A stretch of 63,997 nt of DNA, the filler included, from Candidatus Woesearchaeota archaeon (lineage in GTDB: Archaea > Nanobdellota > Nanobdellia > Woesearchaeales > B72-G16): NCBI GenBank assembly GCA_003650545.1. It is 21 parts of 21 records of this genome, joined end to end, with 100 filler letters (N's around TTAATTAATTAA, not from the genome) between each part and the next. Parts side by side here need not be neighbours in the genome. Positions count along the whole stretch, not along the records: positions 10,050 to 13,266 come from QMQO01000109.1; 20 more parts are not named here. One strand, written 5' to 3'. The notes beneath the pieces were generated by a model. The model worked only from the letters and a program-made list of their open reading frames with translations, ran no database searches and was not told the DNA's origin. Positions 3,607-13,366 of the stretch are shown one piece after another; positions within the stretch are counted from its first letter, which is position 1, and each line of letters starts with the position of its first letter. The position numbers and the translations under genes are program-made.

Positions 3607-5187
3607 CTACTTATTGGTATCTTCTCCATACAGAACAACTTTATTTCTACCTGTCTGCTTTGCTTGATAAAGAGCAGAGTCTGCTTGGTTTATTAAATCT
3701 TTATCTTCTAAGGCATCTGTAGGAAAAGAACTTATTCCTGCGCTAACCGTCACTTTTGTAGTCTTACCTTCATAGGAAAAAATAATCGTTTCAATATTTT
3801 TGCGGATCCTTTCTGCTAAAACAAAAGCTCCTTCCCTGTTTGTTTCAGGTAAAATTATAGTAAACTCATCGCCTCCCCAACGGCAGGGTATATCTTCATT
3901 TTTCCGGATAGACGAACTAATAACAGAAGCTATTTTCTTTAAAATAAAATTACCCATTAAGTGGCCTAACCGGTCATTACACTCTTTAAAGCGGTCTATA
4001 TCTATTATAACTACAGAAACAAAAGAAGAATAACGCCGTGCTCGGGAAATTTCTTCTTTAAGGCGCTGGTCAAAATACCTGTGTACAAAAAAACCTGTCA
4101 AACCATCAGTGATGGCCAACTCATATAAGCGGGCATTAAGCACAATCATAATTAATTGTCCTGTCAAACTCAAAAATAAATTTACATTTTCTTCCGTTAA
4201 GGTTTCTCCTATCTTTTTAGTCAATCCCACAGCACCAACAATATTCTCCTTCTGGATAAACACTACACGATAAAACCAATAATACTTATTCCCAACTTCA
4301 TCTAAAAATAAATCTCTTTCTTGTGGTAGACTATCTTTAGGATAAAAAAAGGCTAATTTGTCAGAGATTGAATGAAGTGCCCGGTTTACCATTCCATCTG
4401 TATCTTTCCCTTTTAAAATAATTTCTTTTCTTTTCTCATCTAATTCGCGGGAGACAAAAAAGAGTACAGACTTATTTTCTCTTAAGATAATTATAAAACC
4501 TGAGAATGCTCCAAGCATCTTAATTAAAATCCCTAATACCATATCTAAAAGAATCTCTGCTTCTAAACCAGAATTTATTGCTGCCGTTATTTCATTAAAA
4601 ACTGTAAGCTCCTCTACATGCCTCTGTAATTTTTTAAAGAAATTAGCATTCTCTATAGCTACTCCTGCTTGATTAGCAAAAGCAAAAAGTAAACTTTTAT
4701 CTTCTGCTGAATACATCTCTTGATTAAGCTTCCTACCTATCAAATATACCCCTCTTAACTCCTTCCTTAAAAACATAGGAACAACCAGTTCTATATTTAA
4801 AGCGGTTAATTCTTTTTTGATCTCTACATCTTCAATCTCCCCAACAAAAAAACCGTCTTTTTTTTCTTTTACTGCAGGATAAATTTTTTCCAACTTAAAC
4901 TTTATTTTCTCTATCTTCTCCTTAAATCCTTCGTCTTCTCCTGCTACATATACAGGCTTATCACCATCAAAGATAATCAAAGCTAATTTTTCCGTTAAAA
5001 AAAGACCTGTTACTGCATAGCTAAAGACCTCTATAATCTTTTCTGTATCTAAGTCTAAACTTAAATTTAAATCCTTTAACACATCACTTAAGGTCAATAA
5101 CTCAATGAGTTTGCGCTTAAATTTTTTTTCAAAGTCGTTTGTCTGCATTCTTTCCTTACTCCTATTTGGTCTCAGAGATAGCTTCAT
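3607..5187 (-). CDS. GAF-GAF-GGDEF diguanylate cyclase (true start may be slightly downstream of 5187)
   Basis: AITDGLTG, IIDIDRFK, RWGGDEF, ADSALYQAKQTGRN; GAF signature FANQAGVAIENA. Confidence 0.92.
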   Translation of the reverse strand: MKLSLRPNRSKERMQTNDFEKKFKRKLIELLTLSDVLKDLNLSLDLDTEKIIEVFSYAVTGLFLTEKLALIIFDGDKPVYVAGEDEGFKEKIEKIKFKLEKIYPAVKEKKDGFFVGEIEDVEIKKELTALNIELVVPMFLRKELRGVYLIGRKLNQEMYSAEDKSLLFAFANQAGVAIENANFFKKLQRHVEELTVFNEITAAINSGLEAEILLDMVLGILIKMLGAFSGFIIILRENKSVLFFVSRELDEKRKEIILKGKDTDGMVNRALHSISDKLAFFYPKDSLPQERDLFLDEVGNKYYWFYRVVFIQKENIVGAVGLTKKIGETLTEENVNLFLSLTGQLIMIVLNARLYELAITDGLTGFFVHRYFDQRLKEEISRARRYSSFVSVVIIDIDRFKECNDRLGHLMGNFILKKIASVISSSIRKNEDIPCRWGGDEFTIILPETNREGAFVLAERIRKNIETIIFSYEGKTTKVTVSAGISSFPTDALEDKDLINQADSALYQAKQTGRNKVVLYGEDTNK

Positions 5188-9949: not shown

Positions 9950-10049
9950 NNNNNNNNNNNNNNNNNNNNNNNNNNNNNNNNNNNNNNNNNNNNTTAATTA
10001 ATTAANNNNNNNNNNNNNNNNNNNNNNNNNNNNNNNNNNNNNNNNNNNN

Positions 10050-10486
10050 CTGACAGTTGTCGCGAGTCGTGCGATCTGGCGCTCTGTCGCGCTCGCACTG
10101 CGGGAAAGTTCATTGAAGAGTTGTTGACCGAGACGAGTACGAGGCAGGATTAACGCGAGGGCTGTGCCCGCGGCGACCAAAGCCATACGGTAACGGCGGA
10201 AAGAATTAGAAGTCTCCTTTACCGCTCTGTCGACTTGCTGCAGAGATCTCTCGGTTTGGCGCGTTTGTTGTTGGAGACGCTCGGTTGTTTCGGCCGCTTG
10301 TTGTACTGATCGCGTAAGTTGTGAAGCACCTTTCCCCGTTTGCTCGAGTTGACGAGAAAGGTTAGTGGAGAGGCGAACGAGGGATTGAGATAGCGCGTTC
10401 AGACTCCGAACTGTGCTCTGGATGGACTCGTTGAGCGCTTGGAGCTCTTCCGCGCCAATAACTTGGATGTCGACTGTTTCTTTCAT
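10050..10486 (-). CDS. Phage tail tape-measure protein, N-terminus (truncated)
   Basis: Long Q/T/S/A-rich amphipathic helix; canonical position after the tail tube and chaperone genes; ATGA-type overlap. Confidence 0.7.
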
Positions 10487-10812
10487 TTGCCAACAATCCT
10501 AACTGGTAACCCCTTTTGCATCGCCCTTTTAAGCTGCTCTTTGAGATCACTTCCTTCTTTTCCTCCTTCTTTTATCTCCGCACCCAACAACCTCGCCCAA
10601 AATTCTTTCTCTCGCCTGATCCGCTTAACCGCGGAACGTAACAAGTGCTCCAACTCCTTGCGGGTGCGGCCTAGCACCTGTTCCGGCGTCCACCCGTACT
10701 CGTGACAAAAGAAGTCGATCAGATCGACTCCAGAGAACTCGTCGTCACTTACCTGCCTAGCGCGTTGGTCATCCCGTCGCTGATCTTTCTGAAAGTTTTC
10801 AAGGACAAAGGG
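10483..10812 (-). CDS. Tail assembly chaperone extension ('T' part), probably reached by a -1 frameshift
   Basis: The -1 frame is open from the slippery heptamer to 10483 and encodes DLIDFFCHEYGWTPEQVLGRT; no strong RBS/ATG of its own. Confidence 0.7.
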   Translation of the reverse strand, partial: PFVLENFQKDQRRDDQRARQVSDDEFSGVDLIDFFCHEYGWTPEQVLGRTRKELEHLLRSAVKRIRREKEFWARLLGAEIKEGGKEGSDLKEQLKRAMQKGLPVRIVGK

Positions 10813-11126
10813 AGAATCACGTTTATCATGTCCTCGGCGCTCAGATTCTCTTCAACCCACTTCTCGTCCTTCCCGAGAAAGAGAGCAGCGATCTTTGACA
10901 TCACGTCGCCAAACTCGGTTAGCAACCTCATAGCCGCTTTCGGGCTAATCGGTTGATCCGGACTCGCGTCCTCAGGCAGAGCTTTTTCCATTACTTCGGA
11001 AAGGAGCTTGTAAATCTTGAGCTCCTTTCCCCAAGCGAGTTTCGGAATCGTGATACGTTCTCCATTGGAAAGTTCAATCTCTCTTCCTTCCTCTACGAAA
11101 GCGTCAATGGGTTTCTCTTTAGGCAT
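10749..11126 (-). CDS. Phage tail assembly chaperone ('G' part)
   Basis: 125 aa, GGAGGTG RBS, lies between tail tube and tape measure. Confidence 0.72.
   Translation of the reverse strand: MPKEKPIDAFVEEGREIELSNGERITIPKLAWGKELKIYKLLSEVMEKALPEDASPDQPISPKAAMRLLTEFGDVMSKIAALFLGKDEKWVEENLSAEDMINVILPLSLKTFRKISDGMTNALGR
10806..10812 (-). promoter_or_regulatory. -1 ribosomal slippery site C CCU UUG
   Basis: In-frame X XXY YYZ heptamer (CTC CCT TTG) near the end of the chaperone ORF. Confidence 0.65.
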
Positions 11127-11182
11127 GTTTTCACCTCCTCGAAGGAAGTTGTGCTCCTAAAAGGAGTCATCAGGAGCTTCTT

Positions 11183-11507
11183 TTAGAAGCTCCCGAGCAA
11201 GTCAATTCGGCACAACCGTTCCGTTGAGCTGAGCGGGTTGCCAGCCCAGTCGGTGGTGGCGGTAAGAGCGCTGAACTCGTACGGGAACTCGTGAGGCTCG
11301 TCGCCGAAGGTGATGGTGATCTCACCAGAACCCTGCGCCCTCCACAAGTACACAATCACGGTCCCGCCAGAGGGCATCTGGTGCACGAACTTAACCGCAA
11401 CTTCAGTGATGTTCATATCACCACCGAAACCGAGCTTCTGGCCCCCGGTGATGCTCTCCACCACACCAGCACCAAGAGCGTACTTCAGGTTATCGAGGTT
11501 CCACTCG
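11183..11507 (-). CDS. Major tail tube protein, last exon
   Basis: After splicing it reads (L)EWNLDNLKYALGAG...VYLWRAQGSGEITITFGDEPHEFPYEFSAL...*, in frame with the exon at 12552-12691. Confidence 0.75.
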
Positions 11508-12480
11508 CAATGGACTGTCGCATCAACTCGGTTGAACCCGAGTTGCCGCCGCGCTCAGTCTCTTCAGGTGAGCCGGAAATCTCCAAGTAACGTTGGTAAA
11601 TTTTGCTCTTTATGTCCTGGCGCCTTCTCCCGATCGGCATTGCTAAGAACACCGTGGCGAGCTCCTTCTTTTTGTCCGACAACAGGTCCAAGCACCTCTC
11701 CAAGACCCTTTTCAGCTTCCTCCCTTTCACCTTCTCACCCAGCGCACTCCGGAATTGCTGTGGAACGTACAACACCATTTCATAGGCCGGATTCTGCGCC
11801 GGACTCTCGTGTTTGTACATCACCAACTTGCCCTGCTCCACAGCTTGCGCCAGGACTTCAGGTGCAACGGAGATTCGCGGCCCTTCCTGTGTGTTGGCAT
11901 CCAATGGACGCAGTTGCCATTTGTACCTGAAGCACTTAAACACCGGCTCTCCAATGTACTGCAAGAAATCGTTAACCCACTCAGGTAAAACCTTCACCAT
12001 TGCCTTCCCCTCATAAATCCACACCACCGATTCAATCCCTATCCCTTTCAGTTGGTCCACAATCCTTTGGTTTTCGTCCTCACCAAAGCACATCGTGTAC
12101 AACCAAATCGCTTCAGGGTATCCATGTGCTCCAACCCTCAGGTGGCCATCCCCACAATATAGCACGTTCAGGACCAACGGGGTGATCTCAAAATCATCCG
12201 GTAACCTTTTCTTTCCCCTCTCATCATACCACCTTTCTCGAAACTCCCCAAAGAACTTCTTGTTGTACACTTCCACACGGTACATCGTCCTTTTCACCCC
12301 AAAGCCTTCTCCTCTGGTCCTCCCGAAGTAGGTCTTGAACCCTTCCGAGCGATACAGCTCGTGCACCTGTTTCGCGTACTCTTTGTGCGTGGTGTTCAAG
12401 GTCAGAAAGCACTTTTTGGTCACATGACCATCGCTGGCAACCAACCCCTCTGTGATTTCCCAAATTCTGTTGTTGCCCAT
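11485..12480 (-). CDS. Intron-encoded double-motif LAGLIDADG homing endonuclease with a C-terminal extension
   Basis: ITEGLVASDGHV and LNVLYCGDGHL motifs; TMCFGEDE and FLQYIGEP..CFRYKW resemble the LAGLIDADG_2 family. Confidence 0.85.
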   Translation of the reverse strand: MGNNRIWEITEGLVASDGHVTKKCFLTLNTTHKEYAKQVHELYRSEGFKTYFGRTRGEGFGVKRTMYRVEVYNKKFFGEFRERWYDERGKKRLPDDFEITPLVLNVLYCGDGHLRVGAHGYPEAIWLYTMCFGEDENQRIVDQLKGIGIESVVWIYEGKAMVKVLPEWVNDFLQYIGEPVFKCFRYKWQLRPLDANTQEGPRISVAPEVLAQAVEQGKLVMYKHESPAQNPAYEMVLYVPQQFRSALGEKVKGRKLKRVLERCLDLLSDKKKELATVFLAMPIGRRRQDIKSKIYQRYLEISGSPEETERGGNSGSTELMRQSIASGTSIT

Positions 12481-12551
12481 TGGATGCGTCCACTTTGATC
12501 AGCGGCGGTTTTTAACTGTACCTCACGGTACAGTGGGCCCGAGTGGACTCA
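11508..12551 (-). ncRNA. Group I intron 2 (1044 nt) in the tail tube gene
   Basis: P1 GGGCU|UGAG-UCCA-CUCGGGCCC with U.G at the 5' site; P10 CCACUCG pairs with 3' exon CGAGUGG; P2 CUGUACC-GUGA-GGUACAG; P3 CCGCCGC/GCGCGGCGG; P5 GCAUCCAAUGG/CCAUUGGAUGC; P7 GAGACUG/CAGUCC; P8 CAACUCGG/CCGAGUUG; terminal G at 11508. Confidence 0.88.
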
Positions 12552-12691
12552 AGCCCCCTAACGGTGAGTCGCACGGACTCAGTCGTAACCCACTGCTTGA
12601 TGAGCTGGCGTGGAGAGCCCTGGTAAACTTCCAAACGCTCGCGTGAAAAAGCGAGCTCAGCACCGGACCGGACTGCTCCGACGTCTACGGT
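12552..12691 (-). CDS. Major tail tube protein, internal exon (140 nt)
   Basis: TVDVGAVRSGAELAFSRERLEVYQGSPRQLIKQWVTTESVRLTVRG; bounded by the terminal G of intron 1 and the U.G site of intron 2. Confidence 0.78.
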
Positions 12692-13266
12692 CACTAACCC
12701 GACTCTTTCGAGCCGGAGTGGACTATACCACCATCCGGAGGTCATATCACTTGGTAAATCCCCCGGATGCTCCGCGTATTGCGACCGAGCACCTCCTTTA
12801 CCAGAGAGGTGAGTCGATCGCCGCCCGAGGAACTCTGGAAGTACTCCCTCGCAAAAAGAACGCTCATGTGCATGTGCAACCTCATGTGCTCGGCGTTCTT
12901 CAATACCAATAAATTGTGCCTGCGGCAATCAAACGGATCTCCGTTGATATGGTGCACCACCTCACCCCTTTTTAAAGGTCTTCCCAGTGCCTTCTCCGCA
13001 ACCATAACGTGCACGAACCTACAATCGGAATTTCTTCCGTTCTTTGAAGCCGTCGGAACGTAGTGAATGTAACCGCCTTTGGTTCTTTGTTTAGCTACGC
13101 TCAGGCCTTTTGACACCACATCGAGGTCTTCCTTATCGATCTTGAGTTCGAACCGTCCATACTTTGACTTGATCGGGAGTACCACCCAGTCTTCCTCGGG
13201 GAAGTCTCTGCAGGGCTTCGACCCTCTCGGGTCTAACCCCTCAGGGTTACCATGCCCCGTATCGGC
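12692..13266 (-). ncRNA. Group I intron 1 (5' part beyond the contig edge)
   Basis: Q-like GGUAACCCUGAG, R-like CUGCAGAGACU, S-like GGUAUAGUCC, P9 CCGGCUC-GAAA-GAGUCGG, P9.0 ACU/AGU directly before the terminal G at 12692. Confidence 0.85.
12742..13185 (-). CDS. Intron-encoded HNH homing endonuclease
   Basis: VHVMVAEKALGRPL..GEVVHHINGD..DCRRHNL...EHMRLH; lies between the two P7 strands. Confidence 0.88.
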   Translation of the reverse strand: MVLPIKSKYGRFELKIDKEDLDVVSKGLSVAKQRTKGGYIHYVPTASKNGRNSDCRFVHVMVAEKALGRPLKRGEVVHHINGDPFDCRRHNLLVLKNAEHMRLHMHMSVLFAREYFQSSSGGDRLTSLVKEVLGRNTRSIRGIYQVI

Positions 13267-13366
13267 NNNNNNNNNNNNNNNNNNNNNNNNNNNNNNNNNN
13301 NNNNNNNNNNTTAATTAATTAANNNNNNNNNNNNNNNNNNNNNNNNNNNNNNNNNNNNNNNNNNNN

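Follow-up and report, generated by a model that had tools for sequence, protein, structure and literature searches.

In a 63,997-base stretch of DNA, referred to here as the window, positions 11183–13266 carry on the minus strand a putative tail-tube gene interrupted by at least two inserts. We read this as the tail-tube gene of a siphovirus-type phage interrupted by mobile group I introns, which would be spliced out to give a full-length tube protein, and put the probability of this reading at about 0.85. It is built on the anatomy of the gene, the in-frame junction between its exons, the intron helices with their covariation in relatives, and the fold predicted for the intact homologue P0004. 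From these we infer that splicing occurs, that it is self-catalysed, and that the nucleases encoded within the introns are active.

Exon junction and identity of the protein

Exon 2 (TVDVGAV...LTVRG plus CT) and exon 3 (C plus EWNLDNLKYALG... and then a stop) are separated by intron 2. Removal of 11508–12551, carried out by script from the coordinates, joins the 140-nucleotide and 325-nucleotide exons in frame into 465 nucleotides with a single terminal stop, as a preliminary description of this stretch had proposed. The joined product aligns with residues 30–181 of P0004 in one ungapped block, in which 99 of 152 residues are identical (65%), and its alignment with P0005 is likewise ungapped. 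Four other homologues have gaps only near query residues 60–72 and none at residue 47, where the junction falls, so the expectation that homologues would be continuous across the exon 2/exon 3 junction was borne out. Across the join the window reads ...SVRLTVRG-L-EWNLDNLKY..., compared with ...SVKLEVHGMEWNLENLKY... in P0004 (182 residues), and five intron-less relatives read ...G(M/L/H)EWN... through the intron 2 site without interruption. Intron 2 interrupts the codon for Leu75 (CU|C).

When exon 3 was searched without a profile against 1.84 billion representatives, 149 matches were obtained at E ≤ 0.001, and 98 at E ≤ 1e-10. The homologues are mostly about 180–190 residues long, and exon 3 aligns to their residues 77–181. 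The public gene call on the same contig, P0003, is only 93 residues long and starts at GTG 11464, within exon 3, in agreement with the earlier remark that gene callers miss the gene. Three database proteins (P0019, P0038 and P0040) begin precisely with the LEWNL of site 75 or the (S)TDVGAV of site 29, which suggests that they may come from further intron-split genes called as fragments.

The structure of P0004 was predicted using AlphaFold2 with 49 relatives, giving a predicted local distance difference test score (pLDDT) of 95. A Foldseek search with this model found the solved phage tail-tube protein 9n71_A at an E value of 2.6e-9, and also 8zdj_S, 6xgr_A, 9fkb_AM and 7t2e_A; the solved tail tubes matched include those of Douge, JBD30, YSD1, HFTV1 and lambda (gpV). 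The fold was computed for this intact homologue, to which the joined product of the window was aligned. PHROGs family phrog_2175 matches three of the four homologues scanned (8.5e-8 to 2.5e-10; P0012 has no match), and PHROGs also gives weak major-tail matches for homologues; in Pfam there was no family match for the tail-tube protein. On the basis of the predicted fold of P0004, together with the position of the gene before genes for a tail assembly chaperone and a tape measure protein, which the preliminary description had also noted, the gene is predicted to encode a siphovirus-type phage tail tube.

Ends and fold of intron 2

The boundaries of intron 2 follow the rules for group I introns that had been claimed for them. 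P1 (GGGCU|UGAG-UCCA-CUCGGGCCC) consists of seven Watson–Crick and two G.U pairs and has U12552.G at the cut; the 5′ part of the guide sequence, CCACUCG, pairs at all seven positions with CGAGUGG, the first bases of exon 3, to form P10; and the terminal nucleotide of the intron is G11508. Reading from the sequence, there is a single register that combines a U before the cut, a terminal G and a kept reading frame.

The helix pairings of intron 2 (Table 1) were confirmed by script. P3 and P7 form a pseudoknot, with P8 between P3′ and P7′ in the canonical order, and the joining segment J2/3 reads UAAAAA. Among the perfect inverted repeats of the intron, P5 is the longest, at 11 nucleotides, and P6 is matched over 13 nucleotides at 85%, extendable to 15 base pairs (bp) with one mismatch. 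In other runs, a strain variant at 12525 (A>G) replaces the GUGA of the P2 loop by GCGA; the loop is still of the GNRA type.

We also note a 10-nucleotide, 90% complementarity between 12485–12494 and 12542–12551, which pairs the first intron bases, UGAGUCCACU, with the 5′ region of P4, AGUGGACGCA. This pairing would compete with P1/P10 and with P4, and could be either an alternative fold or a chance match.

Conservation of intron 2

Relatives with an open reading frame (ORF) at the same place were found in viral contigs (L004) and in metagenome contigs (L087 and L086), while two more (L088 and L089) are rearranged. P3, P5, P6 and P8 are kept in L004, L087, L088 and L089 with different sequences. 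P3 is CCGCCGC:GCGGCGG in the window, CCUCUGC:GUAGAGG in L004, CCUCCGC:GCGGAGG in L087 and CCCCUUC:GAAGGGG in L088. P5 is 11 bp long in the window, 9 bp in L004, 13 bp in L087 and 4 bp in L088, and its sequences all differ. P6 reads GGGCCG:CGGCUC in the window, CAGUUCGC:GCGAACUG in L004, GCGGU:ACCGC in L087 and GGUGGACUU:AAGUCCACC in L088, and the sequence of P8 is different in each of these four. The R element is translated as PEETERGG in the window and as LQRLSVED in L004, that is, in different frames, and its conservation is therefore at the level of RNA and not of protein.

The core AGAGACUGAGCG..(25–55 nucleotides)..CGACAGUCC was found in 39 viral-contig loci with about 30 distinct cores, and a 7-nucleotide P3′ partner in the context AAA-P3-UGA is present in 28 of 31 distinct cores, ours included. 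For 14 compact members without an ORF (alignment A2), RNAalifold predicts P3, P4, P5, P6 and P8. When P7 is added, 97.8% of the cells in this alignment pair, compared with 35–44% when the partners are slid; both sides have changed in 22 of the 29 pairs, and the observed value was equalled in none of 500 shuffles. The helices and their covariation support the identification of intron 2 as a group I intron, which would be expected to splice.

Separate group I introns lie a few hundred bases from some family members (L023 2240–2450, L031 1204–1414, L027 1866–2134 and L019 1297–1484), three of them above the gathering score of 50 for the general Rfam group I model, RF00028 (81.9, 81.9 and 54 bits); the genes of those members therefore also carry several introns. 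Many family members apparently lie in ribonucleotide reductase active-site codons (..NPC..). A further pattern, AAAACCNCNGCTGATCAA, was rejected: of its 35 loci, five are the L004 phage group again, and the rest resemble chance matches. One locus from this search, L051, has R/S-like motifs at +156 and +199.

A reading frame threaded through intron 2

The 331-residue frame of intron 2 matches PF03161 at 5.9e-14 (52.8 bits, against a cut-off of 25) and phrog_11023 at 1.2e-25 over residues 5–189. The motifs ..GLVASDGH.. and ..LYCGDGH.. are invariant in alignments A3 and A5, and the AlphaFold2 model (5 sequences, mean pLDDT 72.7) has two alpha-beta-beta-alpha-beta-beta-alpha halves. The frame is accordingly annotated as a putative LAGLIDADG homing endonuclease with two motifs, each with an acidic residue, and is predicted to be active.

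The frame starts with an AUG inside P5, and the nuclease domain (residues 1–185) is encoded in the P5 loop (L5). After L5 the codons cross P5′, P4′ and the 5′ strand of P6, and a domain of about 100 residues (205–302), which we call domain X, is encoded in the P6 loop (L6). The last 33 codons cross P6′, P7, P3′, P8, P7′ and the splice site, so that the stop codon is 23 nucleotides inside exon 3. The model has two long stretches with pLDDT below 50, residues 186–203 and 305–331, and these correspond to the codons that lie over core helices; shorter stretches of low pLDDT, at residues 114–121 and 285–287, do not lie over core helices.

Domain X is conserved as protein, with third-position variation. 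It has no Pfam family and no Atlas match, and a word search found only three close relatives. It is always encoded in L6, immediately ahead of P7; this holds even for L088, whose nuclease domain has been relocated behind P7′, and the constant place could hint at a conserved partnership between RNA and protein. In L088 (1234–2735) and L089, P4–P5 is compact and domain X alone is encoded in L6, with the LAGLIDADG domain and a second X-like domain following P7′, all in one frame of 465 residues (X-LAGLIDADG-X′). No in-frame register of the L088 exon junction places a U before the cut while also leaving a terminal G.

Intron 1

The frame within intron 1 matches PF13392 at 1.3e-11 (44.4 bits, against a cut-off of 24.8) and 15 PHROG families, 14 of which are annotated as HNH endonuclease. 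The two introns thus carry homing endonucleases of different kinds, as had been stated. The HNH ORF lies between the 5′ strand of P7 and P3′; its 3′ end overlaps P3′ and the 5′ strand of P8 and finishes in the P8 loop.

The helices of intron 1 were assigned by alignment with L009, a viral contig in which a homologous HNH ORF (4462–4995) lies directly upstream of tube residues 30–182 and which shares long identical core stretches with the window. L009 gives two partial, sub-threshold matches to RF00028, one running from P1 to the R element/P7 (4321–4606, 23.8 bits, E 1e-3) and the other from P8′ to P9 (4784–4986, 25.6 bits, E 3e-4). Compensatory changes between the window and L009 occur in P6a (GACCC/GGGUC and GAUUU/GAAUC respectively), P8 (CAUCCGG/CCGGAUG and CAUCCGU/ACGGAUG) and P9 (CCGGCUC/GAGUCGG and CUCAUC/GAUUGAG). 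Patterns of 20 and 19 nucleotides taken from intron 1 matched only L009 and a second viral contig, L091, and nothing in genome contigs.

The insertion site was located using L086, which encodes a LAGLIDADG protein 93% identical to ours and has the same intron 2 guide. Its tube exon is continuous over the intron 1 site, reading ...VLYLGPAGSTPVIDIGAVRSGAE... (...STP VIDIGAV...). Because L086 reads through without interruption, intron 1 is placed between the codons for Pro28 and Thr29, and it follows that its 3′ splice site is after G12692, as originally proposed. Position 13266 is the end of the contig and lies within this upstream insert; the contig therefore lacks exon 1 and the 5′ part of intron 1, and the intron continues beyond 13266, as the preliminary description had indicated. 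Contigs from other runs extend past 13253, and read there like the P4/P5 region of L009; four of them (X1–X4) reach 76–137 nucleotides further than 13266. The claim of two group I introns holds in so far as both inserts have group I architecture and covariation in relatives; intron 1 is incomplete, and two is a minimum number.

Intron positions in the tail-tube family

Related introns occur at at least four positions in the first 75 codons of the tail-tube family (codons 15–17, 28/29 and 75), and the guides match each site. They are found at Pro15|Gly16 in L004 and L087; at one or two positions within codons 16–17 in L086, L088 and L089; at 28|29 in the window gene and on the 3′ side of L009; and in the Leu75 codon in the window gene and L086. 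L001, L002 and L003 have a tube gene without an intron. The closest relative of the window gene, L086, has a further intron at codon 16, in keeping with two introns being the minimum for the window gene.

L087 is a metagenome contig from the same sample set as the contig of the window, and ends just after P7′. It has a different tail-tube gene start (MNVPTYNVERISFGP|), interrupted at codon 15/16 by an intron of the same LAGLIDADG type. It could represent the missing upstream part of a related phage, though no link to the window contig was found.

Genomic context

The window consists of about 20 short contigs (2.8–3.3 kb each) separated by linkers of the form N44-TTAATTAATTAA-N44, for example at 9950–10049 and 13267–13366. 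The gene described here sits on one of these, contig C109 (10050–13266), which is 3217 bp long with a GC content of 52.7%. C109 belongs to a bin of 133 contigs and 1.64 Mb, most of which has a GC content of 33–37% (about 34%); several other small contigs of the bin are likewise at 45–64%. A blastn comparison of the contig with the other 132 contigs of the bin gave no match. Because of its 52.7% GC in a bin of 34%, the contig is most likely a misbinned phage fragment.

All genes of the contig are on the minus strand, and the chaperone gene and then the tape measure gene lie downstream of the tail-tube gene (Table 1). In two other runs a single nucleotide is deleted at 11128, a position that separates the tube gene from the start of the chaperone gene. 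A blastn search of 50,697 phage records with 11183–13266 gave no match, and protein-pattern searches of viral contigs, with exon 3 and the LAGLIDADG protein as queries, found no relative.

Table 1. Coordinates of the genes, exons, introns and intron helices on contig C109, in window positions
Feature	Position	Strand	Basis
Intron 1, HNH-type group I, 5′ part cut by contig end	12692–13266	minus	alignment with L009
Intron 1 P4′	13241–13246	minus	alignment with L009
Intron 1 P6a hairpin	13220–13233	minus	alignment with L009
Intron 1 R/P7 5′ strand	13202–13211	minus	alignment with L009
HNH homing endonuclease gene (predicted), 147 residues	12742–13185	minus	PF13392 HNH_3
Intron 1 P3′	12770–12775	minus	alignment with L009
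Intron 1 P8	12732–12769	minus	alignment with L009
Intron 1 P7 3′ strand, AUAGUCC	12720–12726	minus	alignment with L009
Intron 1 P9 with GAAA loop	12699–12716	minus	alignment with L009
Intron 1 terminal G	12692	minus	
Tail-tube exon 2, 140 nucleotides, 46 codons + 2 nucleotides	12552–12691	minus	translation; matches P0004 residues 30–75
Intron 2, LAGLIDADG-type group I, 1044 nucleotides	11508–12551	minus	helices and covariation in relatives
Intron 2 P1, including 5 exon nucleotides	12535–12556	minus	
Intron 2 guide sequence	12535–12546	minus	
Intron 2 P2, ACUGUACC-GUGA-GGUACAGU	12515–12534	minus	
Intron 2 P3, CCGCCGC:GCGGCGG, 7 bp	12502–12508 with 11546–11552	minus	
Intron 2 J3/4, UGAUCAA	12495–12501	minus	
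Intron 2 P4, GUG:CAC, 3 bp, weak	GUG 12491–12493 with CAC in 11889–11893	minus	
Intron 2 P5, GCAUCCAAUGG:CCAUUGGAUGC, 11 bp	12477–12487 with 11897–11907	minus	
LAGLIDADG homing endonuclease gene (predicted), 331 residues	11485–12480	minus	PF03161, phrog_11023
Intron 2 P6, GGGCCGCGAAUCUCC:GGAGAUUUCCGGCUC	11869–11883 with 11570–11584	minus	
Intron 2 P7, 5 bp, GACUG of R-like element AGAGACUGAGC with CAGUC	11556–11560 with 11513–11517	minus	
Intron 2 P8, CAACUCGG-GUUCAA-CCGAGUUG, 8 bp	11524–11545	minus	
Intron 2 J8/7, AUGCGA	11518–11523	minus	
Tail-tube exon 3, 325 nucleotides including stop	11183–11507	minus	homologues match it at residues 77–181
Tail assembly chaperone gene	10749–11126	minus	phrog_1442, 5.3e-5
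Tape measure protein gene start, cut by contig end	10050–10486	minus	weak PHROG and Pfam TMP_N/TMP_2 matches

Contrary evidence and alternative explanations

Several observations weigh against the reading of a spliced tail-tube gene. No RNA run was found among the runs listed as holding the stretch. Contigs of four DNA runs have the introns in all, with no intron-less allele of the strain and no intron-skipping joint, in a comparison where no listed piece spans the whole stretch. P7 was fixed by the search pattern, so that it is invariant across the family and carries no covariation information. The contig ends before it reaches P1–P3 and the 5′ splice site of intron 1, and only two relatives show the 5′ flank of this intron: at L009 4299–4346 and L091 1389–1436, on two independent viral contigs, the same sequence M N T P T Y N T K R L N * L G P is followed by the intron. 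For this KRLN*LGP flank, no in-frame register puts a U before the cut and also ends the intron in G, and tube codons 13–28 are missing from L009. The flank could be a counterpart, at the level of DNA, of exon skipping between two introns; another possibility is a non-canonical splice site.

A search with group I covariance models was among the checks proposed in the preliminary description, which took the lack of a hit as refuting it. Formally this outcome did arise for the window: RF00028 gave no match there at E ≤ 10, in three scans covering 9990–13270, 11490–11720 and 12680–12880. On the family core it matched only L013 (31.5 bits) among 19 loci and only L040 (21.7 bits) among the 11 loci of another scan, both below the gathering score; the other four matches in the 19-locus scan are separate neighbouring introns. 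We judge this to be a failure of sensitivity and not an absence of the fold, because of the 0.5–1 kb reading-frame insertions. In a covariance model of the family itself, the loop insertions of 570 and 285 nucleotides would be too long for any model window. The RF00028 alignment of L040 assigns P3, P4, P5, P6 and R exactly as in our analysis.

The core of intron 2 also has weak points. P4 is only 3 bp long, compared with 4–5 bp in L004, L087 and L088, and there is no P9, only five nucleotides (CAUUG) separating P7′ from the splice site; P9 hairpins are present in the same three relatives. P9 is peripheral and lies outside the catalytic core of group I introns. Because of the 3-bp P4 and the absence of P9, the ribozyme may be weak or in need of a protein. 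A more elaborate version, to which we give little credence, is that intron 2 is a protein-assisted group I intron, for whose weakened core the LAGLIDADG plus X protein doubles as a maturase. Since the stop codon lies in exon 3, the full LAGLIDADG plus X protein could come only from unspliced RNA.

The weak P4 and the missing P9, together with the lack of an Rfam match in the window and the in-frame TAG and missing codons 13–28 of the homologous gene in L009, would also fit inserts that derive from group I introns but have lost splicing, leaving the gene as a pseudogene in a decaying phage or prophage fragment. We consider this improbable. No stop or frameshift disrupts exons 2 and 3, which are intact and share 65% identity with P0004, and the two nuclease frames are likewise intact. 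Every helix pairs perfectly or almost perfectly. At least 10 DNA runs from separate studies contain near-identical copies (word share ≥ 0.2), and the listed strain differences are mostly transitions, with the P2 loop remaining GNRA.

Free-standing nuclease genes can also split a gene into pieces that are translated separately and then assemble, as described for nrdA of phage Aeh1 in the available part of the report (PMC3045599). Possible starts for such pieces exist here, in the GTG at 11464 in exon 3 that gene callers use and in a GUG directly before exon 2 (12692–12694). Yet the frame of exon 2 reaches a stop after 12 codons of intron 2, which would leave a 46-residue piece of a β-sandwich, and the GTG at 11464 sits 14 codons inside exon 3. 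Moreover, the P1/P10 guide fits the exact junction and the ribozyme core covaries, neither of which a free-standing gene needs, and a split gene of this kind is very unlikely. LAGLIDADG and HNH nucleases are also found in inteins, but removal of the inserts at the protein level is refuted by the reading frames, since each nuclease ORF is read in a different frame from the exons beside it, the exon 2 frame ends within intron 2, and the Pfam scan found no intein splicing blocks.

Proposed mechanism

Under the reading that we prefer, a phage tail-tube gene with mobile group I introns, the contig would come from a siphovirus-type phage of hydrothermal-vent or sediment metagenomes. Intron 1 would lie between codons 28 and 29, with the HNH gene between P7 and P3′, and intron 2 inside the Leu75 codon, with the LAGLIDADG endonuclease gene as cargo. 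After transcription, each intron would fold into a group I core. Splicing would begin with attack by a guanosine cofactor just after the U of the P1 U.G pair. This step would free the 5′ exon, which P1/P10 would hold for a second attack, after the terminal G, that joins the exons; the full-length tube protein would be translated from the joined RNA. In co-infecting relatives, alleles that lack the introns would be cut by the nucleases and would receive a copy of the introns. Such homing fits the presence, in the same gene family, of related introns at several different codons.

Comparison with known systems

Staphylococcus phage Twort is a myovirus with a low-GC Gram-positive host. The available parts of the cited reports describe a close precedent in its orf142 (Landthaler & Shub 1999, as cited in PMC11878797 and PMC10136302): this tail-tube gene contains three group I introns, of which introns 2 and 3 are IA2 and flank a 23-nucleotide exon. 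As described there, orf142 resembles the window gene in being a tail-tube gene with several group I introns, short exons and a product that depends on multiple splicing. The present case is set apart by description only, with a siphovirus-type tube, vent metagenomes and two different intron families. In Cluster J mycobacteriophages, the excerpts of PMC3706429 report introns in the capsid gene of LittleE and in a minor tail gene of BAKA and Optimus, with splicing demonstrated by reverse transcription PCR. These too are of group I type and in virion genes, with a U at the end of exon 1, a G at the end of the intron and one LAGLIDADG-like gene; unlike here, each gene has a single intron, the nuclease gene of LittleE lies on the other strand and the intron of BAKA contains no ORF (PMC3706429, same excerpts). 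In the window, by contrast, sense-strand ORFs overlap the ribozyme core. In view of Twort and Cluster J, the statement in the preliminary description that introns in structural genes are uncommon was too strong.

Overlap between ORF and core ("core creep") has been tabulated at 0–81 nucleotides for systems including the T4 td intron with I-TevI, according to the part of PMC3073962 that we could consult. As described there, the td/I-TevI nuclease ORF likewise lies in a peripheral loop and runs into the core, with translation signals buried in RNA structure. The overlap described here is larger than the 0–81-nucleotide cases in that table: the ORF starts in P5, fills L5 and L6, and crosses the 3′ core and the splice site.

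Fungal mitochondrial introns have comparably threaded ORFs. For Bastillevirinae introns, the available text of PMC11878797 reports partial Rfam matches on either side of a long homing-endonuclease loop, and one of these introns carries a phrog_11023 LAGLIDADG_2 protein, as here. According to the same text, they colonise only core nucleotide- and DNA-metabolism genes (rNDPLs, DNA polymerases and terminases, mostly DNA polymerase); unlike here, no intron in a tail gene is reported in it (PMC11878797). A tail-tube gene with several group I introns is therefore of a kind already known from Twort, of which the window gene is a new and well-supported example; what is unusual about it is the threaded ORF, the lack of P9 and the family of multiple insertion sites.

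Implications

Automatic annotation yields only a 93-residue fragment of the tube protein, and the general Rfam group I model misses a widespread phage intron family, with its core in 39 viral-contig loci. For a phage, the overlap of ORF and ribozyme is extreme, with a single ORF passing through two loops and the entire 3′ core. If the maturase idea were true, production of the nuclease and of the tube protein would be mutually exclusive on each transcript, and translation would time splicing. In the tail-tube family, the retargeting of group I introns could be studied in a natural system of small size. For the vent phage itself, an essential and abundant virion protein would not be made without RNA splicing.

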